Notes: generated by a model not told the origin, from the letters alone. Positions 33,694-56,306 are shown, counted from the first letter of the stretch. The stretch: 64,000 nucleotides of DNA from an uncultured Thermoanaerobaculia bacterium (GCA_964641415.1 CAZXMW010000001.1:66545-130544), one strand, 5' to 3'. A program made the numbers and translations.

Positions 33694-33712
33694 GATCGCA
33701 CCGGCCTGTGCC

Positions 33713-37951: not shown

Positions 37952-38128
37952 GATCGGCGAGCCCGAGCCCGCGACCTGGTCCGCGACGGGGCTGTCCGGT
38001 AATCTGCTCACGCGCGCTCCAAACCTGGAAGCTCGATCCGGCCACTGCACTTCATTCTACCCGAAGCTCCACCCGGAACGACGTTTCCGGCTCGGCGCCA
38101 GAGTCAGAGGGCCGCGTCGTCCGGGCGG

Positions 38129-38360: not shown

Positions 38361-38376
38361 TGGCATGGACCTTGCT
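38361..38376 (+). promoter_or_regulatory. Sigma-54 (-24/-12) promoter TGGCATggaccTTGCT
   Basis: GG at 38362-63 and GC at 38374-75 with canonical spacing. It lies upstream of the fimbrial operon, giving a leader of about 150 nt. Confidence 0.7.
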
Positions 38377-38538
38377 GTCATGTTCGGGCATGAAGTGTGT
38401 CGGTTCCCTCCGCCGCGGGCACAACCCCCTCCGCCGAGCTCGACAGGGCGAGGTCGAGAGTGGCGTCGCAGCCCGTTCGTCAACCCAGAAAACCACGCCG
38501 GCAACCCCGGCAGGACCTTCGTTCAAGGGAGAAGAGAA

Positions 38539-39126
38539 ATGAAGAAGATCGTTGTTGCGTGTTTGCTCGTTGTGGGTGCGTTCCTGGTCGCGCCGGGCTC
38601 GGCCTCGGCCCAGGCGACCGGTGACGTGGACGTCTCGATCACCGTCAACGGGTTCGTGATCCTGTACTACTACGACACCGTGGCGATCACCATCCCCTCC
38701 AACGTGATGGCCCAGGCTCTCGCGGGCGCCGACGCCAACGGCGGCGTCGGGAGCCCTCTCGGGTCCATGGCCGCGACGTCGCTCGGCGCGGGCGTTCTGA
38801 CTGCGCCCAACGCGACCGCTCCCGGTGGCACCGCGCCCGGCAGCGACGCCACCCTGACCATTCAGAACGCGTGGTCGATCCGCGGCCTCACCGCCAACGG
38901 CGTCGATGTCGCCGTGCTCGACAACGGCAACGACCTGACCCACGCGAGCGCGGGCACGATCGAAGTCGACCAGGCTCGCTGCGCCGGTTCCTGCACCGAC
39001 CTCGACCCCACGCTCGGGTCGGTGCTGAGCGGCGGCGTCGAGCTCGACCTGGACTTCGCGGGCGTCACAGGCCCCGGGACCTTCTCGAGCGCGGCCACGT
39101 ACACCATCACGGCGACCGTGCTGTAG
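38539..39126 (+). CDS. Secreted fimbrial-subunit-like protein A (195 aa)
   Basis: AAGGGAGAAG RBS precedes ATG 38539. Signal peptide is MKKIVVACLLVVGAFLVAPGSASA. The protein is Gly/Ala/Thr-rich and beta-type, has one Cys pair (CAGSC), and is first gene of a chaperone-usher-like operon. Confidence 0.7.
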   Translation: MKKIVVACLLVVGAFLVAPGSASAQATGDVDVSITVNGFVILYYYDTVAITIPSNVMAQALAGADANGGVGSPLGSMAATSLGAGVLTAPNATAPGGTAPGSDATLTIQNAWSIRGLTANGVDVAVLDNGNDLTHASAGTIEVDQARCAGSCTDLDPTLGSVLSGGVELDLDFAGVTGPGTFSSAATYTITATVL

Positions 39127-39148
39127 AAGGTGTCTGCGAGGTCGAGCC

Positions 39149-39778
39149 ATGAAGCCGACCGGCTTTGATCGCGACCGGGACCGGGTGCTGCGCCCGGTCC
39201 CGGTGGTCGTGGTTGCCGCCGTCGCCACAGTCTTTTTCTTGGCGGCGGCGGCGCCGGCCGAGGCACAATCGCCGCGCGGCGCCGACCTCCGGGCCGGCTC
39301 GAGCGAGCTCTGGATCGAACGGCACGCCCGGCTCGAGCCCGTGACGTCGGTCGACTTCGGCGGCGGCGCCGGCGCCCGGCCCGAGCAAGCGCCGGAGTCT
39401 CTCGCCACCTCCCTCGGCGGCCGGGGCCGCCTGACGACCGGGTTCGCGGCGCCCCCGGTCGGACCCTCGACCTTTGTCGTCCGGCGCGAGGTCGACGGCC
39501 TCTGGCGGGTTCGCAGCCGTGGCCCGGGCGCGGCGGTCGCGACGCGGGTCGACTATGATTTCATCGGGGCCAACGGTGAGCCCGGCGTGCTGAGCCACGT
39601 CACCGACGACCGGTCGGTGATCCCGGTACGGGTCGTCGAGCTGCCGCAGCGGGTCAGGGAACGCCCGGGCGGCGGGGCCACCGTGGAAGGAGGGGTCATG
39701 CTGGAGATGGACTTGGCTCGGGCTCGGGAGGCGGGCGGCTACGGCGGGACCTTGCTGGTCACCGTCGTCCAGCTGTGA
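39149..39778 (+). CDS. Secreted fimbrial-subunit-like protein B (209 aa)
   Basis: Signal-anchor reads VVVVAAVATVFFLAAAAPAEAQ. The C-terminal strand GGYGGTLLVTVVQL resembles the terminal beta-strand of pilus subunits. It starts 22 nt after the previous gene. Confidence 0.6.
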   Translation: MKPTGFDRDRDRVLRPVPVVVVAAVATVFFLAAAAPAEAQSPRGADLRAGSSELWIERHARLEPVTSVDFGGGAGARPEQAPESLATSLGGRGRLTTGFAAPPVGPSTFVVRREVDGLWRVRSRGPGAAVATRVDYDFIGANGEPGVLSHVTDDRSVIPVRVVELPQRVRERPGGGATVEGGVMLEMDLARAREAGGYGGTLLVTVVQL

Positions 39779-39785
39779 GCCGGCC

Positions 39786-40766
39786 GTGATTCTGCTGACA
39801 CATCAGAGGTCTCCGGTGCACGCGGCGAGCCCTCCAACCTGCGCTCGCCGGGTTCTTCTGTCCGTGGTGTTGATGCTCGCTGCGGCGCCGGCTCTCGCCC
39901 AGATCGGCGTCAGCCCGCCGCGCACCGAGTTCAGTCTCGACGACGGTCGGGCGACCCACACCATCCGGGTCTTCAACGTCGGCGGCGAGACCGTCGAGGT
40001 CGCGGTGGAGATCAGCCACTGGGATCTGGACGAGGACAACCGGGTCCGGATCATCCCGCCCACGGAGCAGTCGCTCGACCAGTGGCTGGTCGTCAACCCG
40101 CTGCGCTTCACCCTGGCGCCGGGCGGCGCCCAGGCGGTTCGTCTCGCCGCCCGGCCCCGGGTCGAGCCTGAGCCGGGCGAGCACCGGGCGCTGCTGTACT
40201 TTCGGCAGATCCCCCCGACGCACGAGGATGGCTCGGTCGACGGCACCAAGGTCCTGTTTCGGCTCGGGACCTCGGTGATCGGCCTCGCGCAACCGGTCGT
40301 CCGGGAAGCGGTGGTTCATGAGATGACCGTCGAAGCATCGGGGATCCGGGTCGACATCGAGAGCCTCGGCAACACCCATGTGCGCCTCGCCGGTCAATGG
40401 GCGGTGTGGCCGGCCGAGGTCTACCCGGGGCGAGAGAAGACCGGGCCCATCGAGGGCCTGGAAACAGATGAAGAGGTTGCGCTGCCGGACGGCGTCGTCG
40501 CGGCCCGGATGCTGAGCTCGCTGCCGGTCCTTCCGGGAACGCGGCGGGTGATCCCGACCGGCTTCGGCCTGCCCCTGGAGCCCGGCGCCTACGTCGTCGA
40601 CGTGCACGGCGAGGTCGCCGGGGTCGACGTCGGCGGCGCGTTCGAGATGACCGTGGAGCCGCCGCCGGACGACGAGCCGATGTCGACTCCCGCGCCCGTC
40701 CCGACGCCGGCTCCGACGCTACCGCCGGCAGACGAGCCGGAGGCTGCGCCCACCGACGGCGGGTAG
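39786..40766 (+). CDS. PapD-like periplasmic pilus chaperone with Pro/Ala-rich tail (326 aa)
   Basis: A signal peptide is followed by IGVSPPRTEFSLDDGRATHTIRVFNVGGETVEVAVEISHW...LVVNPLRFTLAPGGAQAVRLAARP, the typical chaperone N-domain pattern. The tail reads PPPDDEPMSTPAPVPTPAPTLPPADEPEAAP. Confidence 0.7.
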   Translation: MILLTHQRSPVHAASPPTCARRVLLSVVLMLAAAPALAQIGVSPPRTEFSLDDGRATHTIRVFNVGGETVEVAVEISHWDLDEDNRVRIIPPTEQSLDQWLVVNPLRFTLAPGGAQAVRLAARPRVEPEPGEHRALLYFRQIPPTHEDGSVDGTKVLFRLGTSVIGLAQPVVREAVVHEMTVEASGIRVDIESLGNTHVRLAGQWAVWPAEVYPGREKTGPIEGLETDEEVALPDGVVAARMLSSLPVLPGTRRVIPTGFGLPLEPGAYVVDVHGEVAGVDVGGAFEMTVEPPPDDEPMSTPAPVPTPAPTLPPADEPEAAPTDGG

Positions 40767-40776
40767 GGCCCGGTTC

Positions 40777-43365
40777 ATGGGGGGCTCCGTGCGGGCGAGA
40801 ACGGCGCCGGTTGCCGCGCTGCTTGCGGTCACTGTGCTCGCAGCGCTCCCGGCGTCGGCGGCGTCCATCGCCGCGACTCTCCTCGCCGACATCGCGCCGG
40901 CCGAGACCGGCATCCTGGTCGGCGTGATCGTCAACGGCGTCGAGGTCGGCTCGGTCGAGGTCGTGCGACGGGACGGCGAGCTGCTGCTGCCGCTGGTCGA
41001 GGTCGTCGAGCTCATCGGCGCCGAGCTCGAGGAGGCCGACGGCGCCGTGGCCGTGTCGACGCCGATTGGGCGCGTGACGCTCGCGCTTGACGAGGTCGTC
41101 CGCGTCGACGGCGTGCTGATGGCGCCGTTCGAACTCTTCGAGGCGCGGCTCGCGACCGGTGTCGCCTTCGACCGCCAGGAGTTCGCCCTGCTCTTCGACG
41201 TGCCGTGGTCGCGGCCGGGCGAGGCGCCGGGAGCGGCGGCAGCCGCCGAGCTCGGCCCCGCTGATTTCACCCCGCCGGCAGCGACCCTGGCCACGCTGCA
41301 GGCCGACCTCCGGGCCGCCCGCGAGTCCGGGCGGGACGTCTACCAGACCTCGACGGTGGCCGAGGGCCGGCTCGCCTCGGGCTGGTGGCGGGTCCGTTAC
41401 GAAGACGACCTCGACACCTCTCATCGCTTCGAGGAGTACTCGTGGCTGCGGACCAGCGGCCGCCGCCAGCTCCTGCTCGGCCACCAACGGCTGCGGCTGC
41501 ACCCGATCTTCGACAGTCTCGAGCTCACCGGCGCCCAGCTCGCCTACACCAACGTCGACCTCGACTCCTTCAGCCGGTCGCGGGAGGCGCGCGAGTTGCT
41601 GTCGCGGCGCATGCAGTCGGTGACCACGGTGCGGGGCTTCGGGCCGCCGGGCGGGCTTGCCGAAATTCGAATCGACGGCGTCCCCCTCGACCGCCGGACC
41701 ATCGCGCTGAACGGCACCTACGAGTTCACCCAGGTACTGCTGCCGTCGCGCCAGGCGACCCGGATCGAGGTCTACGTCTACGACCGCTCGAACCTGCTCA
41801 TCCCGGTGGCGATCGTCGACGAGACCCGGCGCGCCTTCGACCTGCTGATGGAGGACGGCGCGGTCGTCCACCAGGGCGGGCTCGGCAGCCAGGGCAACCT
41901 GGCGGACGATCAGCGGGAGGTCGCCGGCGACGGCGAGCTCGCGGGCTTCTACCAGCTCCGCTACGGCGTCAGCGACCGGCTGACGGTGGAGGCCGCCGCC
42001 CAGCGGGTCGCCGGTCGTGACCAGCTCCAGGCCGGGGTCGTCGCCCGCCTCGGCGCGGGCTTGGTCGCCTCGCTCGGCGCCGTCGCCTCCGACGAGGCCC
42101 TCGGCTACGACCTCGAGCTCAGCGGCCAGTGGGACCGGTGGTGGCTGCAGGGGAGGTCCTACGAGACCGAGGAGGGCTTTCGGGTGGCGAGCCCCGACCG
42201 CGAGTTCGACCACTATCTCGAGCTCGGGCTCGACGCGGGCCGCCGCCTCGACCTGTCCCTGATCGCCCGCCGCCGGGACGGTCCGACCGGCGAGGCCGAC
42301 TACCTCCTGCCGGCGGTCAGCTGGCGGCCGGTCGATTCGATGTCGGTGCGGATCCGACCCGACCTCGACGGCCGCTACATGGGCAACCTGTGGTGGCGGA
42401 TCGACCGTCGAAGCCGGCTCGGCGTCGACGTCCTCGAGGACCTGTCGACCAGCGCCGAGCTGTCCCGCGACGTCGGCGCAAGGAGTACAGTTCGTCTCGG
42501 CGCCGACCTTCGCTCCGGTCTCCCCGACCGCTACTCGGCGACGTACGAGACCGACCTGGATCTCGCTGCCAGGACGACGCTTTCGGCCGGCGCCCTGGTC
42601 GCCGACGGCGAGCTCGGCTACGAGGCCCGGGCGACCATCGGCATCGATCCCGGTTTTCTGGTCAACGTCGAGATCCGCGACGACCCCTCGCTGCGCGGCT
42701 TCGGCGAGGACTCGGGCCGGCGCTACTTCGTCGGGATGTCCATCGACCTCGGCTTCGCCGGTGGGCGCATCATCCCGGCCCACCGCGGCGCGGTCCGCGA
42801 CGACCGGGGCGCCATCGCCGGGGTCGTCCGGGCGGCCGAGGACAGCGCCGGCAGGCGCCGCCTCGACAACGTGCTGGTGCTCGTCGACGGCGCCCGCGGC
42901 GGCCGCACCGACGCCAGCGGGACCTTCTTCGCCGGCCGCCTCGCCGCCGGCCTGCACGTGGTCGAGCTCGACAGCGAGAACCTGCCCATCGAGCTGGTGC
43001 CCGACCGCAGCCGGTGGCTCGTGGAGGTGGCGCCGGGCGCCGTGACCAGAGTCGACTTCACGGTCCATGCCGAGTACGGCATCGCCGGCCGGGTCACCGA
43101 TGCCGCGGGCCGGGCGCTGCCGGGGTGGACGGTGGCGGTGCTCGACTCAGCCGGCCGGGTGGTCGGCCGGGCCACGACCGACCGCTTCGGGCTGTACCGC
43201 GTCGACGGCATGCCGACCGGCGTCTACCAGGTCGGGGTGCTCGACGATCCCACGGCCGAGACGCCCGAGACCCTGGCGACCCGGGAGATCGAGATCGTCG
43301 ACGACTTCCTGTTCGGTCAGGACCTGATGCTGCCGTTCGAGGTTCCGGCGCCTCCTGAGAGCTGA
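40777..43365 (+). CDS. Outer-membrane usher-like protein with two C-terminal carboxypeptidase-regulatory-like beta-sandwich units (862 aa)
   Basis: Signal peptide present. The usher-like N-domain reads VGVIVNGVEVGSVEVVRRDGELLLPLVEVVELIG. A long Tyr/Arg/Asp-rich beta-barrel-like middle follows. C-terminal units read GAIAGVVRAAEDSAGRR..GTFFAGRLAAGLHVVEL and GIAGRVTDAAGRALPGWTVAVLDSAGRVVGRATTDRFGLYRVDGMPTGVYQV. Confidence 0.65.
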   Translation: MGGSVRARTAPVAALLAVTVLAALPASAASIAATLLADIAPAETGILVGVIVNGVEVGSVEVVRRDGELLLPLVEVVELIGAELEEADGAVAVSTPIGRVTLALDEVVRVDGVLMAPFELFEARLATGVAFDRQEFALLFDVPWSRPGEAPGAAAAAELGPADFTPPAATLATLQADLRAARESGRDVYQTSTVAEGRLASGWWRVRYEDDLDTSHRFEEYSWLRTSGRRQLLLGHQRLRLHPIFDSLELTGAQLAYTNVDLDSFSRSREARELLSRRMQSVTTVRGFGPPGGLAEIRIDGVPLDRRTIALNGTYEFTQVLLPSRQATRIEVYVYDRSNLLIPVAIVDETRRAFDLLMEDGAVVHQGGLGSQGNLADDQREVAGDGELAGFYQLRYGVSDRLTVEAAAQRVAGRDQLQAGVVARLGAGLVASLGAVASDEALGYDLELSGQWDRWWLQGRSYETEEGFRVASPDREFDHYLELGLDAGRRLDLSLIARRRDGPTGEADYLLPAVSWRPVDSMSVRIRPDLDGRYMGNLWWRIDRRSRLGVDVLEDLSTSAELSRDVGARSTVRLGADLRSGLPDRYSATYETDLDLAARTTLSAGALVADGELGYEARATIGIDPGFLVNVEIRDDPSLRGFGEDSGRRYFVGMSIDLGFAGGRIIPAHRGAVRDDRGAIAGVVRAAEDSAGRRRLDNVLVLVDGARGGRTDASGTFFAGRLAAGLHVVELDSENLPIELVPDRSRWLVEVAPGAVTRVDFTVHAEYGIAGRVTDAAGRALPGWTVAVLDSAGRVVGRATTDRFGLYRVDGMPTGVYQVGVLDDPTAETPETLATREIEIVDDFLFGQDLMLPFEVPAPPES

Positions 43366-43384: not shown

Positions 43385-44752
43385 TCACCGGAGCCCGAGC
43401 TGGTCCAGCTTGGTGTACAGGGTCGACCGTGAAATTCCGAGGATCTTGGAAGTGCGCTGGATGTTGCTGCCGGTGGCCTCGAGGACCCGGCCGATGTGCT
43501 CCGCCTCGACCTCGGCCAGGGTCCGGTCGGTGGCCCAGTCCGAGGCTCGGCGCGGCCGCAGGGTGTCGGGCAGGTGGGCGGGGTTGAGGGTGGCGCCGTC
43601 GCCGGCCCGGATCAGGGCCGACTCGACCACGTTGCGCAGCTCGCGCGCGTTGCCGGGCCACGGGTACTTGAGCAGCAGCTCCTGGGCCCGCGCCGAGATT
43701 CGGGTGACCCGCCGCCGGACCACGGGATTGAGCTCGCCGATGAAGTGGTGGGCGAGCTCGAGAACGTCTTCGTCGCGATCCCGCAGCGGCGGGATGTCGA
43801 TCCGGAAGACGTTGAAGCGGTAGTACAGATCGGCTCGAAAACGCCCCGAAGCGACCTCCTCGCCGAGGTCGCTGTGGCTGGCGACGATGAGGCGGACGTC
43901 GGTGGAGATCTCCCGGACCCCGCCGACTCTCCGGAAGGTCTGGCTCTCCACCGCCTTGAGCAGCTTGCTCTGGGCCTGCAGGTTGAGCTCGGCGATCTCG
44001 TCGAGAAACACGGTCCCGCCGCGGGCGATCTCGAGCAGGCCGGGCTTGCGGTCGGTGGCGCTCGTGAACGCGCCCTTCTCGTGCCCGAACAGCTCCGACT
44101 CCACCAGCTGCTCGGGCAGGCTCGCGCAGTTGACCACCGTCAGCGGGCCCGTGGCCCGCCGCGAAAGCCGGTGAATGCCGCGGGCGACGATGTCCTTGCC
44201 GGTTCCGGTCTCGCCGTGGAGGACGACCGCCGAGTCGGTCTCGGCGACCGCCGCGACCAGCTCGCGCACCCCGGCGATGGCGTCGCTTCCGCCGACCAGC
44301 TCGGACAGCACGCCGTTGTGCGCGGCCCGCGACGTGTTCGCAGCCTGGTAGATCGAGACCCGGGACAGCGCCCGGTGGCGCTCGAGGGTCTGACCGACGG
44401 CGCTGAGCAGCACATCGAACGACACCGGTTTCGGCAGGAAGTTGTCGGCGCCGCGGAGCATCGCCTCGACCACGGTCCGGGTGTCGGTCTGCCCGGTGAG
44501 GATGATCACCGAGATCAGCTCGTCGCTGTCCTTGATCGTCGGCAGCACGTCGATGCCGTCCTGGTCGGGCAGGCCGAGGTCGAGCAGGACCAGCTCCGGA
44601 TCGTGGCGGGCGAGGTGGTCGAGAGCGGCCTGCGCCGCCCCCACGGTTGTCACCGAGTAGCCCTCGGCTGTCAGCCATTCGGACAGCATCTCGGCGGTGC
44701 GCGGGTCGTCCTCGACGACGAGGACGCGACCGGTGGCTGGTTGTGACGCCAT
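43385..44752 (-). CDS. NtrC-family sigma-54-dependent response regulator: REC, AAA+, Fis-HTH (455 aa from ATG 44752; ORF opens at 44875)
   Basis: Receiver reads RVLVVEDDPRTAEML...LVLLDLGLPDQDG. Walker A is GETGTGK. The sigma-54 contact loop reads GHEKGAFTSA, a GAFTGA variant. The C-terminal HTH reads NIQRTSKILGISRSTLYTKLDQLGL. Confidence 0.9.
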   Translation of the reverse strand: MASQPATGRVLVVEDDPRTAEMLSEWLTAEGYSVTTVGAAQAALDHLARHDPELVLLDLGLPDQDGIDVLPTIKDSDELISVIILTGQTDTRTVVEAMLRGADNFLPKPVSFDVLLSAVGQTLERHRALSRVSIYQAANTSRAAHNGVLSELVGGSDAIAGVRELVAAVAETDSAVVLHGETGTGKDIVARGIHRLSRRATGPLTVVNCASLPEQLVESELFGHEKGAFTSATDRKPGLLEIARGGTVFLDEIAELNLQAQSKLLKAVESQTFRRVGGVREISTDVRLIVASHSDLGEEVASGRFRADLYYRFNVFRIDIPPLRDRDEDVLELAHHFIGELNPVVRRRVTRISARAQELLLKYPWPGNARELRNVVESALIRAGDGATLNPAHLPDTLRPRRASDWATDRTLAEVEAEHIGRVLEATGSNIQRTSKILGISRSTLYTKLDQLGLR

Positions 44753-44812
44753 GTCGGTCTCAATTGTACCTGATGTCGCCGGGTTGTCACAGGCGTCCGA
44801 AGCCGGGACGCC

Positions 44813-44829
44813 TGGCCGGAATCCGGACA
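44813..44829 (+). promoter_or_regulatory. UAS-like site TGGCCGGAATCCGGACA, with an extra CCGGACA half-site at 44834-44840
   Basis: 15/17 match to TGTCCGGATTCCGGACA. It lies 61 nt upstream of the activator gene start, a position compatible with autoregulation. Confidence 0.4.
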
Positions 44830-44915
44830 GTCCCCGGACATCCGCCCCGACGCCGCCCAGGACGCCCGACAGCACGGGCGAGGGCCGACTCCGGCTCCTG
44901 CCGCGCCGGCGAGAG

Positions 44916-44932
44916 TGTCCGGATATTGGACA
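44916..44932 (+). promoter_or_regulatory. UAS palindrome TGTCCGGATATTGGACA
   Basis: TGTCC-N7-GGACA, 14/17 match to the 38206 site (GTGTCC...GGACAC if extended). Its centre lies about 113 nt upstream of the predicted start site of the 45011 sigma-54 promoter. Confidence 0.5.
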
Positions 44933-45010: not shown

Positions 45011-45026
45011 TGGCATCGGACTTGCT
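45011..45026 (+). promoter_or_regulatory. Sigma-54 (-24/-12) promoter TGGCATcggacTTGCT
   Basis: GG at 45012-13 and GC at 45024-25 with canonical spacing. GGAGG (45043-47) and ATG 45053 follow. Confidence 0.7.
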
Positions 45027-45052: not shown

Positions 45053-45457
45053 ATGATCCGCCGACCTGCGACGTCCCAGACCGAGCCCGCCACCCGCGCG
45101 GCCCTCCTGGGCCTGTGCTCCCTCGCCCTCCCGATCGCCCTCCTGGTCAGCCCACCCCCCGTCGCAGGCGCGTCCGGATCGGTGTCCGTCACGATTCGTG
45201 TCGAGGTCGACCCGGTCGATCTCCACGGCGGTGGTCTCCTCGATGGCGCGCGCGCAGGCGCCGACGAGGTCGCCGCCCTGCTCGCCCCGGTCCTACGCCG
45301 ATCGTTGGCGGCGCGCTATGCGCCTTCCGAGATCGACCGGATCGTCGACTCCGTCGCCGACGACTGCGTCGTCGTGCGAGACGGCGAGGTCGTTGCGCGG
45401 ACATCGACCGATCCGGCGTCGCTGAGCCGCGACGGCGAGAGTGTGTTCATCCTCTGA
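45053..45457 (+). CDS. Small secreted protein of unknown function (134 aa)
   Basis: ATG 45053 follows GGAGG. Signal peptide is ...ALLGLCSLALPIALLVSPPPVAGASG. It is the first gene behind the sigma-54 promoter. No family recognised. Confidence 0.6.
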   Translation: MIRRPATSQTEPATRAALLGLCSLALPIALLVSPPPVAGASGSVSVTIRVEVDPVDLHGGGLLDGARAGADEVAALLAPVLRRSLAARYAPSEIDRIVDSVADDCVVVRDGEVVARTSTDPASLSRDGESVFIL

Positions 45458-45544
45458 ACACCGCAGGATCATGAAAGGGCAAGGAAGGGGCGAGAGCAGC
45501 CATGGCAGCCGGCTGGTTCGGGCGACGCAAGGTGGTACCCTGAA

Positions 45545-48055
45545 ATGAGCATGCCGGTTCGAAGCAACAAGCTCGCCATGCCGCCCGAGCAGGCGATGCG
45601 CGCGCTGCGGCGCGGCGAGTTCGAGTCCAGCGATGAGCGCGACTGGCTGCTCGACGTGGTCAGCCAGGCGCAGGTCTCCGAGCCGCGCGAGTTTCTCTGG
45701 ATGCTGTTCACGCCCGACCGTTCGCTGCGCGAAGCGGGCTCGGAGCTGGCCCGCGGTTGCCGCGACGTGACGCTGGTGGATCGCTTCGTCGAGCACTGCC
45801 GGCGCGCGCCGGACGCCGCGGTTCGTGCCGCCTGCGCGGGCCTGTTCGCGGCTGCTGTGCCGGGTACCGAGCAACGCCTGCTCGAGCTGGCGTCGTGCGA
45901 CGACCCGATTGTCGCCGGTCTGGTCAACCGCATCGCCGCAGAGGCGCCGCCGTCGAGGGCGCTCGAACCTCTGTACTGGCAGCTCGCACGCTCCGGCGCC
46001 ACCGCCGGCCAGCGCGTCGTCTTCATCGAGCGGCTCGCGGCCCTGGGCCTCGACCAGGGCGGCCTGGACCGGTGGCGGGAGCTCGCCGACGACGAGGAGA
46101 CGCCGGTGCGCGAGGCGGCGCTGAGCGTGCTCGCGGCGACGGCCGCAGAGAGCTGTGTGGAGCTCCTGATCGCGGCGTTGCCGGAGGTCGGATACGGGGT
46201 CCAGCAGCACCTCATCGCCGGTATCGCGAGCGTCGCCGTCGCCCGGGGTCCCGAGTTCGCCGACCGCGTCCTGCCCCTGATGGCATCCGGCGATCCCGGG
46301 ACCCGGACCGCCGTGCTCAAGATCCTGCTGCAGATGGGGGACCGGAGGGAGCTGGTCAAACGATATCTGAACTTCTCGCGCACGCTCGCGGGCTGGATCC
46401 GGGACCGCGCGCTCGAGTCGATGCGGGAGTTCGGCCCCGATCTCGCCGAGCCGACCATCGAGCTGCTCGGCGATCCCGACGAGTCGGTGCGGGGCGCGGC
46501 GGTCCTGGTTGCGAGCTCCTTCGAGGACCCGAGGGTCGTGCCGGCCACCCTGCCGTTGCTCGAGGACCCGGACTGGTGGGTGAGGATCACCGCCGCCGAA
46601 AGCCTGGGCCGGATCGGCGACCCCCGGGCGGTTGCCGCCCTGTGCGAGGTGCTCGACGAGCCCGAGACGCGGTGGGCGGCAGTGGAGGCCCTCGGGCGGA
46701 TCGGCGATGCCCGGGCGCTGCCGGCGCTCGGCAAGCTGCTCAAGGACCCCGCCGCCGAGGTCCGCATCGAGGTCCTGCTCGCGCTGCGCAACTTCCGGCA
46801 CCCGCGCATCCTCAAGGTGATCACCGGGGTCGCGGCCAACGATCCCGACCGAGTCGTGCGGGCGCGCGCCCTGGAGATTGCCGAGGAGCTCGCGACCCGC
46901 GACGAGACCGAGCTCGACGACCACAAGGCGCTGAAGGCCCGGGCGCACCGGCTCGGGGTGTCCGACGGCGAGCCGAGGCTCCACGGCCTGCTCGTGACGA
47001 CCCGGGAGCGGGAGGCATCGGACCTCCACCTGTCGGTCGGATGCGAGCCCACGATCAGGCTCGGCGCCGATCTCATCGGGCTCGGCGGGCCGCCCATGAC
47101 CGCCGCCGACACCGAGATCCTGGTTCGCGGCATCCTCACCGAGGACCAGCTGTCTCGATTGCGGCGGGACCGCCAGATCGACCTCTGCTACTACATCCCC
47201 CGGGCCGGCCGCTACCGGGCCAACGTCTTCGTGGACCACAAGGGGACCAATGCCGTCTTCCGGGTCATCGCCGAAAAGCCGCCGACGATCACCGACGTCG
47301 GCCTGCCCTCGCACGTCGCGGACATCGCATCCCACCACCAGGGGCTGGTGCTCGTGTGCGGTCCGGCAGGCAGCGGCAAGACCACCACCCTCGCCGCCCT
47401 GGTCAACCTGTTCAACGAGACCAGGCACCTGCACGTGATCACCCTCGAGGATCCGGTGGAGTTCGTGCATCCGTTCAAGAACTGTCTCGTCAACCAGCGC
47501 GAGGTCGGCAGCCACACGCGGTCCTTCGCCCGGGCGCTGCGGGCGGCCCTGCGCGAGGATCCCGACCTGATCATGATCGGCGACCTGCGCGACACCGAGG
47601 CGATGGCTCTCGCCCTGACCGCGGCCGAGACCGGCCACATCGTCTTCGGCACCCTCAACTCGGTGGACGCGGTCAAGGCGGTGGGCCGCGTCATCTCGTC
47701 GTTTCCGGCCAGCCGGCAGGCGCAGATCCGCGCCGCCCTCGCCGACTCGCTGCGGCTCGTGATCGCGCAGCGGCTGCTGCCAGGGACCGAACCCGGGGCG
47801 CGGGTCGCCTGCTTCGAGATCCTCAAGGGCACGCTGTCGGTGAGCCACCTGATTCGCGAGGACAAGCTCGTCCAGCTGACCTCGGCGATGCAGGTGGGAC
47901 GGAGCAAGGGCATGCAGCTGTTCGACGACGCCCTCAAAGACCTGGTCCGCCGTGAGCGGATCGCGCCCGAGACCGCCTACCTCGCCGCCAACGACAAGGA
48001 CGCCTTCGAGCCGCTGGTGTCGGAGGAGTTCCTCGCGAGCCGGACCTTCCTGTGA
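45545..48055 (+). CDS. HEAT-repeat domain fused to a PilT-family hexameric ATPase (836 aa)
   Basis: The N-terminal 470 aa or so carry PBS-lyase/HEAT-like repeats (DPDWWVRITAAESLGRIGDPRAVAALCEVLDEP..WAAVEALGRIGDARALPALGKLLKDPAAEVR). The C-terminal PilT core reads EASDLHLSVGCEPTIRL, Walker A GPAGSGKTT, HVITLEDPVEFVH, REVGSHT.SFARALRAALREDPDLIMIGDLRD, GHIVFGTLNS. Confidence 0.85.
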   Translation: MSMPVRSNKLAMPPEQAMRALRRGEFESSDERDWLLDVVSQAQVSEPREFLWMLFTPDRSLREAGSELARGCRDVTLVDRFVEHCRRAPDAAVRAACAGLFAAAVPGTEQRLLELASCDDPIVAGLVNRIAAEAPPSRALEPLYWQLARSGATAGQRVVFIERLAALGLDQGGLDRWRELADDEETPVREAALSVLAATAAESCVELLIAALPEVGYGVQQHLIAGIASVAVARGPEFADRVLPLMASGDPGTRTAVLKILLQMGDRRELVKRYLNFSRTLAGWIRDRALESMREFGPDLAEPTIELLGDPDESVRGAAVLVASSFEDPRVVPATLPLLEDPDWWVRITAAESLGRIGDPRAVAALCEVLDEPETRWAAVEALGRIGDARALPALGKLLKDPAAEVRIEVLLALRNFRHPRILKVITGVAANDPDRVVRARALEIAEELATRDETELDDHKALKARAHRLGVSDGEPRLHGLLVTTREREASDLHLSVGCEPTIRLGADLIGLGGPPMTAADTEILVRGILTEDQLSRLRRDRQIDLCYYIPRAGRYRANVFVDHKGTNAVFRVIAEKPPTITDVGLPSHVADIASHHQGLVLVCGPAGSGKTTTLAALVNLFNETRHLHVITLEDPVEFVHPFKNCLVNQREVGSHTRSFARALRAALREDPDLIMIGDLRDTEAMALALTAAETGHIVFGTLNSVDAVKAVGRVISSFPASRQAQIRAALADSLRLVIAQRLLPGTEPGARVACFEILKGTLSVSHLIREDKLVQLTSAMQVGRSKGMQLFDDALKDLVRRERIAPETAYLAANDKDAFEPLVSEEFLASRTFL

Positions 48056-48068
48056 GGGTGGTGGCGAC

Positions 48069-49130
48069 GTGACCGAGAAACGCCGGATCGACCGTTTTCT
48101 GAAGCTGATGAACGACCGGGGTGCGTCCGACTTCCACCTCACGGTCGGCCGGCCGCCCATGCTCCGGGTCTCCGGGGCGATTCAGCAGGTCCGCTACCGG
48201 ACCATCCGGGAGGTCGACTTCACCGAGCTCCTGGAGCCCGTCACGCCGGCCGAGGCGTGGGCCGAGTTCCAGGACACCGGCGACGCCGACTTCGCGTACG
48301 AGCTGCCGGACGTCGCTCGCTTCAGGGTCAACCTGTTCCGCCAGCAGCGCGGCTCGGGAGCGGTGCTCAGGGTCGTGCCGTCGAGGATCATGAATCTGGA
48401 GCAGCTCGGCCTGCCCCGGCAGATCCGCCGCGTGGTCGACATCCGCAGTGGGCTCGTGCTGGTCACCGGGCCCACCGGTTCCGGCAAGTCGACCACGCTG
48501 GCCGCGATCATCGACCTCATCAACGAGACTCGCAGCTTCCACATCATCACCATCGAGGAGCCGATCGAGTTCGTCCACCACAACAAGCGCAGCATCATTC
48601 ACCAGCGCGAGGTCGGTCGCCACGCGGCGAGCTTCACCGATGCGCTCCGGGTCGCCGGCCGACAGGATCCCGACATGATCCTGGTCGGCGAGATGCGCGA
48701 CTCGGAGACGATCTCGATGGCCCTCCAGGCGGCGGAGAAGGGGACCATCGTCTTCGGCACCCTGCACACGAACTCGGCGGTCCGGACGGTAGATCGGATC
48801 GTCAACTCGTTCCCCGCCGACGAGCAGGCTGGGATTCGCGGCGTTCTCGGCGACAGCCTGCGGGCGGTCATCGCCCAGCAGCTCCTGCCGCGGGTCAACG
48901 GCGGGCGGGTCGCGGCGATCGAGTTCTTCCTCGGCTCGCCGGCATCGGCGAACATCATCCGCGAGGGCCGCAGCTCGCAGCTGACCTCGCTCATCCAGAC
49001 CGGCGTCAGGGACGGCATGATCGAGATGGACCAGTCGATCCGCGCTCTCTACGAAGCGGGCGTCGTCAGCGGCCGCGCCGCCTACGACAAAGCCATCGAC
49101 AAGGAGCAGTTCAAGGACCTGCCGAGATGA
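48069..49130 (+). CDS. pilT: PilT-type twitching-motility/retraction ATPase (353 aa from GTG 48069; ORF opens at 47952)
   Basis: GASDFHLTVGRPPMLRVSGAIQQV, Walker A GPTGSGKSTT, HIITIEEPIEFVH, REVGRHAASFTDALRVAGRQDPDMILVGEMRD, GTIVFGTLHTNSA, NIIREGR. GTG 48069 lies 14 nt after the upstream stop. Confidence 0.9.
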   Translation: MTEKRRIDRFLKLMNDRGASDFHLTVGRPPMLRVSGAIQQVRYRTIREVDFTELLEPVTPAEAWAEFQDTGDADFAYELPDVARFRVNLFRQQRGSGAVLRVVPSRIMNLEQLGLPRQIRRVVDIRSGLVLVTGPTGSGKSTTLAAIIDLINETRSFHIITIEEPIEFVHHNKRSIIHQREVGRHAASFTDALRVAGRQDPDMILVGEMRDSETISMALQAAEKGTIVFGTLHTNSAVRTVDRIVNSFPADEQAGIRGVLGDSLRAVIAQQLLPRVNGGRVAAIEFFLGSPASANIIREGRSSQLTSLIQTGVRDGMIEMDQSIRALYEAGVVSGRAAYDKAIDKEQFKDLPR

Positions 49131-49270: not shown

Positions 49271-50347
49271 TCAGGTCTCGGGCGCTGCCGCGGCCGAGCG
49301 ACCGCCGCCGAGCAGGCGCCGTGCCGCCTCGATGTCCGGCGCGAAGACGTCGGCGCCGAGCTCCCGCCAGAGCTCGGGCGCGACCCGAAACGCGGCGCCG
49401 CCGAGGACGATTTGCAGCTCGCCGTCGAAGCGGGCGCGCGCTGCCTCGACCAGCCTTCGAACGGACGGGATGTTGAAGAGCATCGTCGTCGAGATCCCGA
49501 GAGTGTCGGCGCGGTGGCCCGCGACCGCGTCGAGCACGCCTTCCAGCGGCAGGTTCGAGCCCAGAAAACGGACCGACCAGCCGTCGCTCTCGAGCACGTC
49601 GGCCACCATCTGGGCGCCGACCTGGTGCAGCTCGCCCTCGACGCCGGTGACCACCATCCGGCCCGTTTCGGCGCCCGTTGCCGGCGCCCGGCCGGAGTCG
49701 ACACGGGCCATGACGTACTGGGTGATGGCGGTCGCCATGTGCTCGTCGGCGACCGTGATCCGGTTGGTCTCCCACCGGCGTCCGACCTCGACCAGCGCCG
49801 GCTGCAGCACCTCGAGGTAGAGCCCGGCCAGGTCGTGGCCGCGGCGGAGGAACTCGTCGGCGACGGTCGACGCGGCCCTGCGGTCGCCGAGCAGGATCGC
49901 CTCGACGAAGACCGCGGCGTCCTCGCCGTAAGCAGGGTCGCGGGCGCCGGGCGCGTCCTCCCCGCAGGTCGCGACGCCGGCTGCAAGCATGGCCCTGACC
50001 GCGCGGCCGGCCTCCGGGTCGAGGCGGTGGTCGAGCAGCCCTGCAATCAGCTCGAGGGACTCGACGAGCGCCGACCGCGGCACCTGCCGCGACTCGAGGA
50101 CCACGGCCGTCCAGCGCACGAAGTCCGTGAAACCGCGCTCGGCGCCGGTCTCGACGGCAGCCGCGAGGAAGCTCATGATGAACGCTGCGTCGTCGCGGGT
50201 GTGACGACGCCCGCGCTCGCCGAACCGCTCGGCGAAGTCCGGATGGCGGTCGAAGTAGATGCGGGTCAGGTCGTCGGCGACGGGATCGCTGAGCTGGCGC
50301 AGCGCCGCGCCCCAGCGCCGGCGGGTCGAGCCATCGACGTGGTTCAT
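49271..50347 (-). CDS. Stand-alone cobalamin (B12)-binding protein with CarH-type photoreceptor motifs (358 aa from ATG 50347)
   Basis: The Wx9EH motif (RWETNRITVADEH) and lower-ligand motif ExHxxG (GELHQVG) are followed by a Rossmann-like B12-binding fold (..GWSVRFLGSNLP...ADTLGISTTM..). No MerR or other HTH domain. ATG lies 2 nt after the upstream stop. Confidence 0.85.
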   Translation of the reverse strand: MNHVDGSTRRRWGAALRQLSDPVADDLTRIYFDRHPDFAERFGERGRRHTRDDAAFIMSFLAAAVETGAERGFTDFVRWTAVVLESRQVPRSALVESLELIAGLLDHRLDPEAGRAVRAMLAAGVATCGEDAPGARDPAYGEDAAVFVEAILLGDRRAASTVADEFLRRGHDLAGLYLEVLQPALVEVGRRWETNRITVADEHMATAITQYVMARVDSGRAPATGAETGRMVVTGVEGELHQVGAQMVADVLESDGWSVRFLGSNLPLEGVLDAVAGHRADTLGISTTMLFNIPSVRRLVEAARARFDGELQIVLGGAAFRVAPELWRELGADVFAPDIEAARRLLGGGRSAAAAPET

Positions 50348-50349
50348 TC

Positions 50350-51279
50350 TCACACCTCGCTCTTTTCCGGTGCGTCGTGGTCGGAGATGCCGAGCTCCCG
50401 GGCACAGTCGGGACAGTAGCCGTGACTGAGGAACAGCGAGTGCGCCTTGAGATAGTCGACCACGGTCTCCCAGCGTAGCTCGCCGGTCTTGACCCGTCCG
50501 CACTCCATACAGATCGGCAGCACCTCCTGAATCTTCTTCAGGTGCCAGTAGGATGTGTTGAGCTCGTTGACGGTCCGCTCGAGCTCGGCGCGCGCCGCCT
50601 CGAGGTCGCGGGCCTTGCGGGCGTCGTCCCGGGTCAGCACGATGAGCTCGGCGTTGAGCTCGAGGAGCTGGCGCCGGAGCTTCGCCTCGCGGCCCCGGGG
50701 CGGCGCCCCGAGAATCAGCGCCCCTCCCGGAACCCGCTGGATGCGGCAGGTGAGAGTTTCAGGCAGGCTCGTCGGGCCGGCGAGGTTGAGCAGGAGCTCG
50801 ACCGGCTCGCCGGCCTCGTCGGCGATCGCGGCGGCGACGGTTCGCGCGTCCGGCTCGGTCAGGAGCTCGGCGACGGGCCGGCCCGCGAGGGCCTGAGGCG
50901 CGGCGCCGAGCAGGTCGGCAATGGCGCCGCTCGCCTCGATCACGGCGCCCTGCCGGTCGACGGCGAGCCAGTGGGCATCCTCGGGATCCGCCAGCAGGCG
51001 CTGCAGCAGCTCCATGGCGCCGGCGGCGAGCCACCCCGAGTCAGGTCTGAGTTCGGCCCCTGAGGTGTCGAAGCGCGCCACGACCTCGACCTTCTCGGGC
51101 TCGGCGTCGAGGAACCGGCCGAGGGCCTCGTCGTCGCTCCACCGCGCCAGGAACTGTCCCCTGGTTTCGCCTGCGCCGATCTCGACGGCCAGGCAGCCGG
51201 GCGTTGCCAGGGCCCGCCCGGCGACCCCGCCGGCATCGCCGGCATCTCGGGCGACAGCGAGGATCGCTGCGACCGTCAT
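50350..51279 (-). CDS. Sensor-like protein: N-terminal alpha/beta domain, PAS-like, coiled coil, C-terminal Cys4/His zinc-ribbon (309 aa from ATG 51279)
   Basis: AAGGTG RBS. The PAS-like block reads WLAVDRQGAVIEASGAIADLLG..LAGRPVAELL. The coiled coil reads AKLRRQLLELNAEL...ELERTVNELN. The C-terminus reads LPICMECGRVKTGELRWETVVDYLKAHSLFLSHGYCPDC. Confidence 0.75.
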   Translation of the reverse strand: MTVAAILAVARDAGDAGGVAGRALATPGCLAVEIGAGETRGQFLARWSDDEALGRFLDAEPEKVEVVARFDTSGAELRPDSGWLAAGAMELLQRLLADPEDAHWLAVDRQGAVIEASGAIADLLGAAPQALAGRPVAELLTEPDARTVAAAIADEAGEPVELLLNLAGPTSLPETLTCRIQRVPGGALILGAPPRGREAKLRRQLLELNAELIVLTRDDARKARDLEAARAELERTVNELNTSYWHLKKIQEVLPICMECGRVKTGELRWETVVDYLKAHSLFLSHGYCPDCARELGISDHDAPEKSEV

Positions 51280-51688
51280 CTCACACCTTTGTCGGGGCTG
51301 AAGACTCTGCCGATCATCTGCCTGTCCATGCCGTGCCTCGCGTCCCATGCAGAGGTCATCATATACCCCACCATCGCGTAGGCCCACGGGGAGGCGTCGC
51401 CGCGCTCGACGTCGACGGCTTCGAAGCTCAGCCCGCCGCTCCGGGGCCGCCGGTTCCGGCTCGTCGTGCATAAAATCGTCATCTTCCTCGCGTCCGGGTG
51501 TGCGTCGTCGTACACTGAGAGCAGGGTGAGGGTCGGTCGACATTGAACGCGTCGAGCCCGGAGCGCGCGACCGGCTTGACAACCCGGTGTCGAACGCAAG
51601 CTCGGCGGGCCCGGAAAGAGGCCGGTCGAGGACGGGAGGCCGGCGACGAGCGGGACCCGGCCCCGAACCAGCCGGATTGGGAGGGTTC

Positions 51689-52450
51689 ATGACCGACCGC
51701 GACGACAGGGCGCGACCGTCACGCCTGGGATCGGTTCCGCGCCAATCCGAAGATCTCGTCGCCCCGAGCGCTGCCGGTCGGCGCGCCGACGACAGCCGGA
51801 CGATCATCGCTGCCCTGCCGACGGAGATTCGCGACAACCTCGAGCGCTCGATCCTCGGGCGCGACGACCTTCACGTCCGCTTCGTCGCCGAGCTCGAGGT
51901 CGCGCTCCAGCTCGTCTACCGCCGGGCGCCTGCTCTGCTGCTCGTCTACGACGCCGGCGCCGGCGAGGTCCCGCGGCTGCTCGCCGGCCTCGAGCGCGCC
52001 GTGAAATCGAACACCTTCCCGGTCATCGTGCTTGCCGAGTTCCCTGACGAGAGCTACCCGCGGATCGTCACTCGGGCCCTGCCGGTGGACATGGACGCCG
52101 GTGAGCTGAGCGTCGTCATCGCCCAGGCGGTCCAGCTGCCCACGCGTGCCCGCCGGCGGCATCTCATTCGGGTCGGTGTCCGCCTCGACGATCCCATCAG
52201 CCTCGCGGCCACGGGCAACACCGTCGACGTCAGCGCTTCCGGCATGCTCATCGAGTGCACCAAGCGGCTTCGGGTCGGCGACCTCTACCAGGTGTCGATC
52301 CTCGGCGTCGGCGACGTGCCGATGCTCAGCCTGCGCCTGGTTCGCGAAGCCGACGCGTCCCACCCCAACCTCCATCGCTACGGCGGCGCCTTCGAGGGCG
52401 TCGAGCCCGACGTGGTCGAAGAGCTGATCCGCCGCCTCGCCGACGCGTGA
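51689..52450 (+). CDS. PilZ-domain c-di-GMP receptor with degenerate receiver-like N-domain (253 aa)
   Basis: GGGAGGG lies upstream of ATG 51689. PilZ motifs are RARRRHLIR (RxxxR) and DVSASGMLIE (D.S..G). The N-domain resembles a receiver (ALLLVYDAG...PVIVLAEF) but lacks the acidic pocket. Confidence 0.8.
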   Translation: MTDRDDRARPSRLGSVPRQSEDLVAPSAAGRRADDSRTIIAALPTEIRDNLERSILGRDDLHVRFVAELEVALQLVYRRAPALLLVYDAGAGEVPRLLAGLERAVKSNTFPVIVLAEFPDESYPRIVTRALPVDMDAGELSVVIAQAVQLPTRARRRHLIRVGVRLDDPISLAATGNTVDVSASGMLIECTKRLRVGDLYQVSILGVGDVPMLSLRLVREADASHPNLHRYGGAFEGVEPDVVEELIRRLADA

Positions 52451-52505
52451 CGGCGTCGCCGCCCGAGCGAGCACCGCTTTTCATTACCGCGGAAGGACTG
52501 CCGGG

Positions 52506-55500
52506 TCAGGACGCGCCGGATGCGTCGAGCATCTGCCTGACCTTGGCTGCCAGGTCCGAATGGGAGAACGGCTTCTGGATGAAGTGGACGCCCTCGTCCA
52601 GGATGCCGCGATGGGCGATCACGTTCGCCGTGTAGCCGGACATGAAGAGCGCCTCCAACCCAGGGTGCAGGGCCAGCAGACGGCCGGCCAGCTCCCGCCC
52701 GGTCATCTCGGGCATGACGACGTCGGTGATCAGGAGATGGATCATCTCCGCGTTGCTCTCGGCCAGGGCGATCGCCTCTGACGGCGAGGCGGCCGGCAGC
52801 ACGGCGTAGCCCAGCCGCTCGAGCATGGTCGCGACCAGCTTGAGCACCAACGGCTCGTCCTCGACGACCAGAACCGTCTCGCCGCCGCTGGCCGGCGCCG
52901 GCGCCGGCTGGCGGCGGTCGACGGCAGCGCCGTGATCACCGACGTGGCGGGGCAGGTAGACCTTCATCGACGTCCCGTGCCCGAGCTCGCTGTAGACGTT
53001 GACGAAGCCGTCGTTCTGCTTGACGATGCCGAACACGGTCGACAGCCCGAGCCCGGTGCCGCGCCCGACGCCCTTGGTTGTGAAGAAGGGCTCGAAGGCG
53101 TTGGCGACGGTCTCCTCGTCCATGCCGTGCCCGTCGTCGCTCACGGCAAGCAGGACGTACGCGCCCGCCCGGAAGCCGGCATGGTCGCGGCAGTACTCCT
53201 CGTCGATGTCGACGTTGGCGGTCTCGATGGTGATCTTGCCGACGCCGTCGATGGCGTCCCGCGCGTTGACGCACAGGTTGGCGAGAATCTGGTCGAGCTG
53301 AGACGGGTCGAGCTTGACCGGCCAGAGTTCGAACCCGGGTTGCCAGACCAGGTCAATATCCTCGCCGATCAGGCGACGGAGCATCCTGAGCATGCCCTCC
53401 ACCGTCGCGTTGAGGTCGAGCACCTCGGGCCTGATGGTCTGCTTCCGGGCGAAGGCCAGCAGCTGTCGGGTGATGTCGGCGGAGCGCCGGGCCGCCTCGA
53501 CGATCTGTCTGAGGTCCTCGCGCAGGGGATCGTCGGCGCCGGTCCTCGACAGGGCGAGCTCCGCGTACCCGCTGATCACGCTCAGCATGTTGTTGTAGTC
53601 GTGGGCGACGCCGCCCGCCAGACGGCCGACGGCCTCGATCTTCTGGGCGTGGTTGAGCTGGGACTCCAGGTTGCGCCGCTCGGCCTCGGTCCGGATGCCG
53701 GCCAGCGCGTAGGCGAAGTCGCCGTTCATCTCCTCAAACAGGCTCAGCTCCTCGTCGTCGACGTCGAGCCGGCCCTCGACGGCCGCCGCCAGGTAGCCGT
53801 ACGTGCGGCCGTCGTGGGTGATGGGGGCGCACAGGGATTGCCCGTCCTCGCAGGCGCCGGCGATCGGGCAGCCGCCGCAGATCTCGGCGCGGTCCTCGAC
53901 GATGATGACATCGTTGACGCTTTTCGCACGCTCGCAGCACGGCGGCAGCTCGCCCTGCTCGAGCATGCCGGCGAGCGGGCGCGAGGCCGCGGCCAGGCCC
54001 TCCATGGCCCACGACACCGGCCGGTCGTCGTCGTCGGTCAGCACGATCAGGGCCGACAGGTAGCCGCGGCTTGCCACCAGCAGCCGGCATCCGGCGGCGA
54101 TGAGACGCTCCGGGTCCCGCTCTCGGACGATGAGCTGGTTGACGTCGCGGATCCCCCGCAGCACCCGGTTGAGGTGCTCGGTCCTGCGCCGTGTGGCGAC
54201 GTGATCGGTGACGTCGACGACGGTGGTCAGGAAGTGCAGCGGCTTTCCGGCAGCGTCCCGCCGGATGGATGCGCTGACGTCGGCCCAGACCTCCGATCCG
54301 TCCTTTGTGAGGTAGCGCTTCTCGAACCTGGCCGCGTCGGTCTCGCCGGAGAGCAGCGGCGCGATCGCTCGTTCGCTCGCCTCGATGTCCTCGGCCGGGG
54401 TGAGGTCGCGCCAGGTCTTGCCTTCGAGCTCGTCGAGGGTGTAGCCCAGGAAGTCCGCGTAGGCCTGGTTGGCGTCGATCTCGCCGGTCGGCAGGGTGAT
54501 CGACTTGCCGACGTTCGCGGCCTCGAACACGTGCTGGAAGCGGTCGAGGCTGTCCTCGAGCTCGCAGGTCCGCTGCGCGACCTGCCGCCGCAACGTCCAG
54601 GACCACGCGAACGCAGCCCCCAGAACCAGCAGCAACGGCACGATCACGACTGCCGAGGCGCGCAGCGCCCTGATCAGCGTCGAGCCGGGCTCCGGGTAGA
54701 CGCCGAGCCACTTACCGTAGATCCGCCGGTAGTCGCCGCTGTGCTCGACGGCCTTGAGCCCCTCGCCGAGCTCGGCCAGCAGCGCCCTCTGTCCCGCAGC
54801 GACCGCGTAGCAGTACTCCGAGCTGAGCAGCGGCGTCTCGTCCGGCACGAGGTCGGTCCAGCCGTTCCTCTCGATCAGGTACAGCGCGGTGATGCGCGAG
54901 ACCAGGGCGCAGTCGTGGCGGCCGCCGGCCAGCTGCCGCAGGGCCTGCTCCTGGTCGTCGACCGCGGTCGCGCGCTGCTCGAGACCGTTGGCCACGACGA
55001 AGTCGTGCAGAATTTCGCCCCGCTCGACGACGATGTCCAGCTGACCGAGCTCCTCGACCGATCGCGGCGCCGGCCGCTCGCCGCGCCGGACGACCGCGAC
55101 GTGGTGGCTCACCGTGTGCGGCTGGGTGAAGTCGAAGGCCAGGTCTCGGTCGGGCGAGTAGAACATCCCCTGCAGGGCGTCGACCCGCCCGTCGTGCAGG
55201 GCGTCGAGCCGCTCGCTCCACAGGCCGAGCCTGATCTCGACGTTGAGCCCGAGCTCGCGGGCGATGGCGCGGGTCAGGTCGACGTTGAAGCCGGCCGGCC
55301 GGCCGTGCTCGTCGAGGAACTCGAAGGGCGGGAAGTTGCGGTCGCCGCCGATCACGATCGGCCGGTCCGGCGGCAGCTGCATGGCGGCGAACCACTCGGC
55401 GTGGAGGCGCCTGAAGGCGCCGTCCGCCATCACGATCGCGAGCCCCTCGTTGAGCAGGGCCAGGGTGTCGCGATCGCCCTCGTGGACGGCGAAGCAGAAG

Positions 55501-56255: not shown

Positions 56256-56306
56256 GATCTCAGCTTCGCCCGAAGCACCTTTCGGGGTCGGGATGGCGGT
56301 TTGCGC

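Follow-up and report, generated by a model that had tools for sequence, protein, structure and literature searches.

The 64,000-nucleotide stretch of DNA analysed here (hereafter the window) comes from an uncultured Thermoanaerobaculia bacterium (GCA_964641415.1, CAZXMW010000001.1:66545-130544) and displays a G+C content of about 70%. Its + strand carries two adjacent genes that both encode ATPases of the PilT family. The first one (45545-48055) encodes a protein of 836 amino acids (aa), named HEAT-PilT in this text, in which an N-terminal alpha-solenoid (aa 14-467, positions 45584-46945, + strand) is fused to a PilT core composed of the domains N2D and CTD (aa 478-836, positions 46976-48055, + strand). 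The second one, PilT2 (48069-49130), starts with a GTG codon and encodes 353 aa, a product matched exactly by a public gene call. A third open reading frame (ORF) of the + strand, sp134 (45053-45457; 134 aa), is located upstream and has no match in Pfam or NCBIfam. The initial annotation of the window had already placed these three ORFs at the positions given here; the distance between the stop codon of the fusion and the GTG of PilT2 is nevertheless 13 nt, and not 14 nt as it indicated. Both ATPases are publicly annotated as plain "PilT", which hides the architecture of the first one. The 836-aa sequence has no identical public record. We report that HEAT-PilT and PilT2 form a genuine and conserved module of two PilT-family genes, so far uncharacterised, which most likely represents an accessory motor or adaptor module (retraction/adaptor pair) of type IVa pili.

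The architecture of HEAT-PilT was established from Pfam, TIGR01420 and sequence alignments. Pfam detects HEAT_2, HEAT and HEAT_PBS at residues ~300-440 and T2SSE in the C-terminal part, and repeats of the PBS-lyase/HEAT type are recognisable at aa ~300-450; in PilT2, T2SSE spans the 353 residues. The limits of the solenoid were deduced from the Pfam repeats and from the secondary structure of an AlphaFold2 (AF2) model obtained with 62 sequences, whose mean predicted local distance difference test (pLDDT) value is 85. In this model, 28 helices between residues 14 and 467 form a solenoid that is followed by the PilT fold. The limits of the core come from alignments with PilT structures of the PDB, from a census of motifs and from Foldseek, which compares this fold with PilT4 of Geobacter metallireducens and PilT of Pseudomonas aeruginosa (PaPilT) with a template modelling score of ~0.9. 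Among the homologues, the N-terminal domain is conserved from end to end, beyond the recognisable HEAT repeats, and its family-specific conserved residues include the motifs LAGWxRDRA and DxDWW.

A search of 5.8 billion proteins recovered 727 matches to the fusion. The best 120 of these 727 homologues comprise 801-998 aa (mostly ~830 aa), with a query coverage of 94-100% and an identity of 55-75%. In a set of genomes with one representative per species, 141 fusion stretches were confirmed; of the 80 listed, almost all originate from metagenome-assembled genomes of Acidobacteriota (Thermoanaerobaculia, Vicinamibacteria and Holophagae). A sister clade of fusions of ~825-845 aa is found in the Myxococcota. 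The survey for the HEAT-PilT architecture that the initial annotation had proposed thus reveals a widespread protein. In each sufficiently complete relative the gene is a single ORF of ~830 aa, and a profile-free search with the N-terminal domain has detected distant, collinear full-domain matches of ~830-845 aa. The same domain yielded no stand-alone homologue of ~470 aa among the best 150 representatives, in a search dominated by generic multi-HEAT proteins. One could suspect that the 836-aa ORF results from a frameshift or from an assembly join of pilT with a gene for HEAT repeats. No point in favour of such an artefact was found, and the comparative data refute it to the point of leaving it a negligible probability: the same single ORF, with a conserved junction, recurs in hundreds of independent assemblies, and the separate HEAT half is not seen among these representatives. 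The fusion described by the initial annotation is therefore genuine.

Both window proteins are full PilT-family ATPases. With TIGR01420 (PilT/PilU family; curated cut-off 319.1 bits), HEAT-PilT scores 385.2 bits over aa 479-818 and PilT2 scores 425.5 bits. The profile PilB gives 113.7 bits (cut-off 675.65), the profile GspE 114.3 bits (cut-off 630.25), and the scores of the profiles DotB and VirB11 are far under their cut-offs for both ATPases. Alignments with the solved structures reach 298 bits against PilT and 199 bits against PilU for the fusion, and 354 bits and 227 bits, respectively, for PilT2. The identity to PaPilT is 44% for the fusion core and 49% for PilT2. At the position of the motif AIRNLIRE, the two window ATPases display the variants SVSHLIRE and ASANIIRE. 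Membership of an anti-phage defence system was also considered and rejected, as the models of PADLOC gave no system match and only weak generic matches to P-loop and HEAT proteins.

The catalytic motifs were compared with those of PaPilT, residue equivalences being taken from an ungapped alignment. HEAT-PilT contains an intact Walker A motif GPAGSGKT (606-613, including Lys612) and an intact Asp box EDPVEF. In its Walker B motif, Asp680 occupies the position of the catalytic Glu204 of PaPilT. In its His box (ETGH698...TLN705), His698 corresponds to His222 of PaPilT and Asn705 replaces His229, the gamma-phosphate histidine. The PilT-type ATPase core that had been described as complete is consequently so for Walker A and the Asp box, but not for Walker B nor for the second histidine. 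PilT2 possesses an intact Walker A motif GPTGSGKS (Lys140), an intact Asp box EEPIEF and a Walker B motif GEMRD that keeps its glutamate (Glu208). It is also short of a full His box: His233, equivalent to His229 of PaPilT, is kept, and Thr226 is found at the position of His222. In P. aeruginosa, His229 coordinates the gamma-phosphate, and the substitution H229A abolishes twitching and lowers the ATPase activity; the substitution H222A slows retraction and causes the motor to leave the machine more often.

These substitutions are not particular to the window. The second histidine of the His box is absent from the 120 Acidobacteriota-type fusions out of 120 (replaced by Asn in 87, Ser in 30 and Asp in 3), and the glutamate of Walker B is replaced by Asp in 53 of 117. 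The Myxococcota-type fusions keep the second histidine in 92 of 106 sequences, with scattered losses to Asn or Gln, and most of them have an intact His box and keep the glutamate of Walker B. In PilT2, the first histidine is missing in every examined pair where the motif could be found, the most divergent pairs included. From these distributions we infer that the loss of the first histidine in the PilT2 partner is probably ancestral to the pair, and that the catalytic decay of the HEAT subunit appears to be derived and recurrent. Such a recurrent decay would be expected if hydrolysis by HEAT-PilT were dispensable while nucleotide binding and assembly were retained.

A PilT2 orthologue, with 63-74% identity to PilT2 of the window, is found directly downstream of the fusion gene in nearly all the loci that extend far enough, and the two genes overlap in some of them. 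The presence of a second PilT next to the fusion, which had been pointed out for the window, is consequently almost universal. No other conserved neighbour was detected, either by tblastn of the window neighbours against 81 loci or by de novo clustering of the flanking ORFs, which recovered the pair with its shadow ORFs and nothing else; the annotated flanks of the relatives contain housekeeping or miscellaneous genes. Neighbour-joining analysis places the fusion cores in one clade and the PilT2 proteins in another, each of them recovered in 100 of 100 bootstrap replicates. These two clades display a mirrored branching and are not sister clades. In this tree, built without PilU sequences, 66 of 100 replicates group PilT2 with PaPilT and one canonical PilT. 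The pairwise identities of the two proteins are correlated across 15 loci (r = 0.93). Across Acidobacteriota and Myxococcota, the two genes have been transmitted jointly. Full-text literature searches found no paper describing the HEAT-PilT architecture. The pair had been presented as a possible distinct undescribed module; it is indeed conserved, and these searches found no description of it, but it is most likely not a new kind of machine.

Concerning the pilus itself, no gene for a pilin, PilB, PilC, PilM-Q or a secretin was found in the window by Pfam analysis of the long coding-like ORFs and by a scan for prepilin motifs, which upholds the previous observation that the 64 kb contain no other type IV pilus genes. 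The genes pilT and pilU are often located apart from the other pil genes, so that this absence is weak evidence. Links to type IV pili are found in relatives. A divergent clade includes six loci (L093-L098) where the pair is divergently adjoined by minor-pilin genes of the PilW type, accompanied by a FimU/GspH-like gene in four loci and by a PilX-like gene in three. The fullest annotated set (fimU/pilW/pilX/pilY1-like) is that of L098, which encodes a protein of 2161 aa with a PilY1 beta-propeller domain. At the locus L088, the operon of the pair also encodes a PilU-like ATPase and a canonical PilT that scores 377 bits against PaPilT, and at the loci L082, L083 and L076 a gene for an MshEN-type PilB-like ATPase is located near the pair.

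Some of these loci have further particularities. The operon of L088 (3615-13859) encodes, besides HEAT-PilT, PilT2 and the canonical PilT, the PilU-like ATPase of 564 aa with a C-terminal extension of 200 aa, a protein of 303 aa whose N-terminus resembles the N-domain of PilT, a stand-alone HEAT protein of 476 aa weakly related to the fusion arm, and a protein with a Lon substrate-binding domain; its PilT2 carries a low-complexity N-terminal extension of ~280 aa that is probably disordered. A metagenome scan for this operon retrieved mostly ordinary PilT proteins through one generic pattern, and its informative part is limited to few full-length matches. At the locus L092, whose neighbour families (DUF6068, FG-GAP and Ser/Thr kinase) suggest the Myxococcota, two PilT-type cores follow each other in a single ORF of 740 aa (6277-8499), 1.5 kb upstream of the HEAT-PilT/PilT2 pair; the first core is degenerate and the second is canonical with AIRNLIRE. 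A STAS-domain protein accompanies the MshEN-type PilB-like ATPase in L082 (5567-9614) and L083 (8218-10631), the closest relatives of the window, and in L082 a response regulator and a phosphatase of the GAF-SpoIIE type are encoded as well. These genes suggest a control by partner switching, and none of them is present in the window. A third PilT paralogue, located 4-5 kb upstream of the pair in L018, L029, L057 and L062, was discarded as a further link, since it has no pilus context: its neighbours are glycosyltransferase-like, O-antigen-ligase-like (Wzy_C) and GSDH-like genes.

The region upstream of the pair contains a predicted sigma-54 promoter, TGGCATCGGACTTGCT (45011-45026, + strand; TGGCAT-N5-TTGCT), 5' of sp134. 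This site, of a type whose background rate is 0.019 per 700 nt, displays GG at -24 and GC at -12 with the corresponding spacing, an activator gene is adjacent to it and it is conserved in relatives. The activator gene (43385-44875, - strand) is of the NtrC type, with the Pfam domains REC, Sigma54_activat and HTH_8, and is divergent from sp134. Two copies of the palindrome TGTCCGGA(A/T)TCCGGACA (44813-44829 and 44916-44932) are putative activator binding sites. No terminator-like site was found between sp134 and the ATPase genes. Sigma-54 sites with at most one mismatch occur four times in the window for 1.0 expected, and the palindrome nine times for 0.33 expected. All the palindromes are located 5' of three sigma-54-type sites, with the exception of an intragenic match with three mismatches at 53688, which is probably due to chance. 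Besides the site preceding sp134, these are a perfect site (38361-38376, + strand), with palindromes at 38129 and 38206, before a cluster with a PapD-like and a large outer protein (38365-43365), and a one-mismatch site (24852-24867, + strand), with a palindrome at 24787-24803, before a gene for an extracytoplasmic function (ECF) sigma factor (24879-25583). These sites and their common palindrome make it plausible that, in the window lineage, the pair shares its regulation with the ECF sigma gene and the fimbria-like cluster, as advanced by the initial annotation.

The same arrangement of site, activator and sp134 recurs in L082 and L083, relatives that are 72-75% identical: the sigma-54 site is conserved 5' of their sp134 homologues, the activator homologue is again divergent from sp134 and related palindrome motifs are present, L083 showing an analogous arrangement 5' of its ECF sigma gene. 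A distance of 8.5 kb separates sp134 and the activator of L082 from the ATPase pair, which has its own sigma-54 site 104 nt 5' of the HEAT-PilT start, with the same upstream palindrome. No sigma-54 site was detected upstream of the pair in the 36 other Acidobacteriota loci. Judging from these predicted sites, sigma-54 control appears to be confined to the close relatives of the window, and the description of the operon as driven by sigma-54 holds for this lineage but not for the wider family. The protein sp134 follows the same distribution. Its N-terminus resembles a signal peptide (judged by eye), and the AF2 model of the protein is of low confidence (pLDDT 54). Apart from the sequence of the window, only four homologues were recovered (P0122, L082, L083), and none in 81 loci of more distant relatives. 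By this distribution sp134 is a lineage-specific protein, confined to the close relatives of the window, and its inclusion in a conserved module was not borne out.

Unrelated small proteins encoded on the same strand directly 5' of the pair, a position that recalls that of sp134, were observed in different clades (L042, L043, L050-L052, L059, L063, L064, L071 and L081; L007, L019, L023, L024, L027 and L078; L018, L020, L022, L029, L057 and L062). They include a signal-peptide protein of ~160 aa, a DUF4136-like lipoprotein and a C-terminally anchored protein of ~130 aa. These exported or membrane proteins were considered too weak a ground for further conclusions.

Elsewhere in the window, the fimbria-like cluster (38365-43365, + strand) comprises two unannotated proteins of ~210-250 aa, a PapD_N candidate (39786-40766) and a protein of 862 aa. 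The initial annotation had considered these genes as chaperone-usher genes; a PapD-like chaperone is weakly supported by the PapD_N match, but the 862-aa "usher" contains only a CarboxypepD_reg domain and no match to an usher domain. The cluster may be a fibre system of an atypical, chaperone-usher-like kind. On the + strand, two giant ORFs adjoin each other (526-12768 and 12769-23547; about 4080 and 3525-3590 aa); with 14 and 12 DUF11/CLIPPER repeats and with Calx-beta, cadherin-like and Ig-like domains, they probably encode giant surface adhesins. Finally, a dense signalling island extends over 27251-38050 and 49271-63157. Among its products are several hybrid histidine kinases (600-1320 aa), two response regulators, one with GGDEF (32707-33846) and one of the HD-GYP type (34749-35783), a PilZ protein (~51587-52450) and, beside a PAS protein, one with a B12-binding domain (49271-50347).

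In the reading that we prefer, the HEAT-PilT/PilT2 pair is associated with type IV pili, for which we estimate a probability of roughly 0.65-0.7. The distribution of the catalytic residues further suggests, with about even odds, that PilT2 is the working motor and HEAT-PilT a hydrolysis-impaired, ATP-binding adaptor or regulator. PilT2 would hydrolyse ATP as a motor; HEAT-PilT would bind ATP, oligomerise and hydrolyse poorly, and its solenoid arm of ~450 aa would serve to dock the motor on the machine of the type IVa pilus, to position it there or to control it. In the window lineage, the pair would have been recruited to a sigma-54/NtrC-type regulon that also drives sp134, the fimbria-like cluster and the ECF sigma gene, and would thus be switched on together with other surface structures.

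Several points weigh against this reading. The genes of type IV pili are absent from the window and from the vicinity of most Acidobacteriota loci, and the view of the source genome, for a pilus machine or another canonical PilT, is limited to 64 kb. The linkage to pilus genes comes mainly from the divergent clade whose fusion keeps a complete His box, and the function of the pair could differ between clades. The mirrored trees are explicable by co-inheritance within an operon alone, and the partnership of the two proteins rests on sequence and gene-order data. Slow hydrolysis might, moreover, still be possible with Asn or Ser in place of the gamma-phosphate histidine and with Asp instead of Glu.

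The other explanations differ in the degree of interdependence that they attribute to the two proteins and in their relation to the pilus. In the most interdependent one, a hydrolysis-dead, nucleotide-binding and HEAT-armed subunit would be co-assembled with a catalytic subunit into an obligate two-component motor, which could be a stack of two rings or a mixed ring, comparable to that of F1-ATPase with its non-catalytic and catalytic subunits. We consider this a tentative extension of the preferred reading, with a clearly lower probability than the looser division of labour; if true, it would provide Acidobacteriota and Myxococcota with a clutch-like or regulated retraction motor, and the secretion-ATPase superfamily with its first known pseudo-ATPase subunit. 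Conversely, HEAT-PilT and PilT2 may be two ordinary and independent PilT paralogues, each of them forming an active homohexamer that retracts pili, with motif changes that are tolerated and an arm that sets localisation or timing. Many bacteria have several PilT proteins with partial and additive roles in motility, as exemplified by the four PilT paralogues of Myxococcus xanthus, and most of the Myxococcota-type fusions have an intact His box together with the Walker B glutamate. However, the uniform loss of the gamma-phosphate histidine in the Acidobacteriota fusions and the frequent replacement of Glu by Asp are difficult to reconcile with this independence, and the strict pairing of the genes, their co-inheritance over two phyla and their overlaps or short gaps suggest that the two proteins are interdependent. 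This explanation is unlikely, slightly more so than the obligate motor.

The least probable of the functional explanations, in our opinion, is the one that the initial annotation suggested as a possibility, namely a module separate from the pilus in which the HEAT-organised ATPases power or regulate secretion, signalling or another sigma-54-regulated surface structure, and not a pilus retraction motor. It agrees with the lack of pilus genes in the window and in the flanks of most relatives, with the co-regulation of the window-lineage pair with a cluster that is fimbria-like and not of type IV, and with the additional ATPase and HEAT genes of L088, an operon that contains no pilus platform gene. 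Chaperone-usher fibres, however, do not need a cytoplasmic ATPase. Both proteins are placed inside the PilT family and have kept close variants of AIRNLIRE, and in several relatives the pair adjoins minor-pilin genes (pilY1 in L098), canonical pilT and pilB-like genes; a role separate from the pilus is consequently less likely and is not favoured here.

Among characterised proteins, PilT of P. aeruginosa and PilT4 of G. metallireducens share with both window proteins the N2D and CTD core of TIGR01420, the intact Walker A and Asp box and the AIRNLIRE-like motif. The window proteins differ from them by the N-terminal HEAT solenoid of ~470 aa of the fusion, by the absence of the gamma-phosphate histidine (and, in the window, of the catalytic glutamate) from the fusion, by the absence of the first histidine of the His box from PilT2, and by their occurrence as a pair. 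The closest described system is PilT-PilU, which also consists of adjacent and co-expressed paralogues of the PilT family. PilT bridges PilU to the pilus machine and PilU depends on PilT; by analogy, this division of labour resembles the one proposed here for HEAT-PilT and PilT2. Neither window protein is PilU-like by score, however, and PilU carries a short C-terminal extension instead of an N-terminal repeat domain. Contrary to HEAT-PilT and PilT2, PilT and PilU both retain the full set of conserved ATPase motifs.

An additional N-terminal domain on a secretion-ATPase core is likewise found in PilB, PilF and MshE, and in PilB-type proteins this position holds domains that bind a partner or a ligand. 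The window cores are nevertheless of the PilT type, their scores of ~114 bits with the PilB and GspE profiles remaining far from the cut-offs, and no MshEN or GSPII domain was found in the window ATPases. The PBS-lyase/HEAT-repeat proteins CpcE/F and NblB share with the fusion the type of repeat found at aa ~300-450; the match is restricted to the repeats (54 bits for a cut-off of 300), with no sign of a lyase function.

The cooperation of multiple PilT-family motors is an active question in the biology of type IV pili. The HEAT-PilT/PilT2 pair displays an apparent natural division of labour, with a progressively degraded catalytic site and a large protein-binding arm on one hand, and a catalytically equipped partner on the other hand. 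It lends itself to testing whether an adaptor or pseudo-enzyme subunit exists in the PilT motor family, and may help to explain the surface behaviour of the Acidobacteriota, an abundant but little-studied phylum of soil bacteria.

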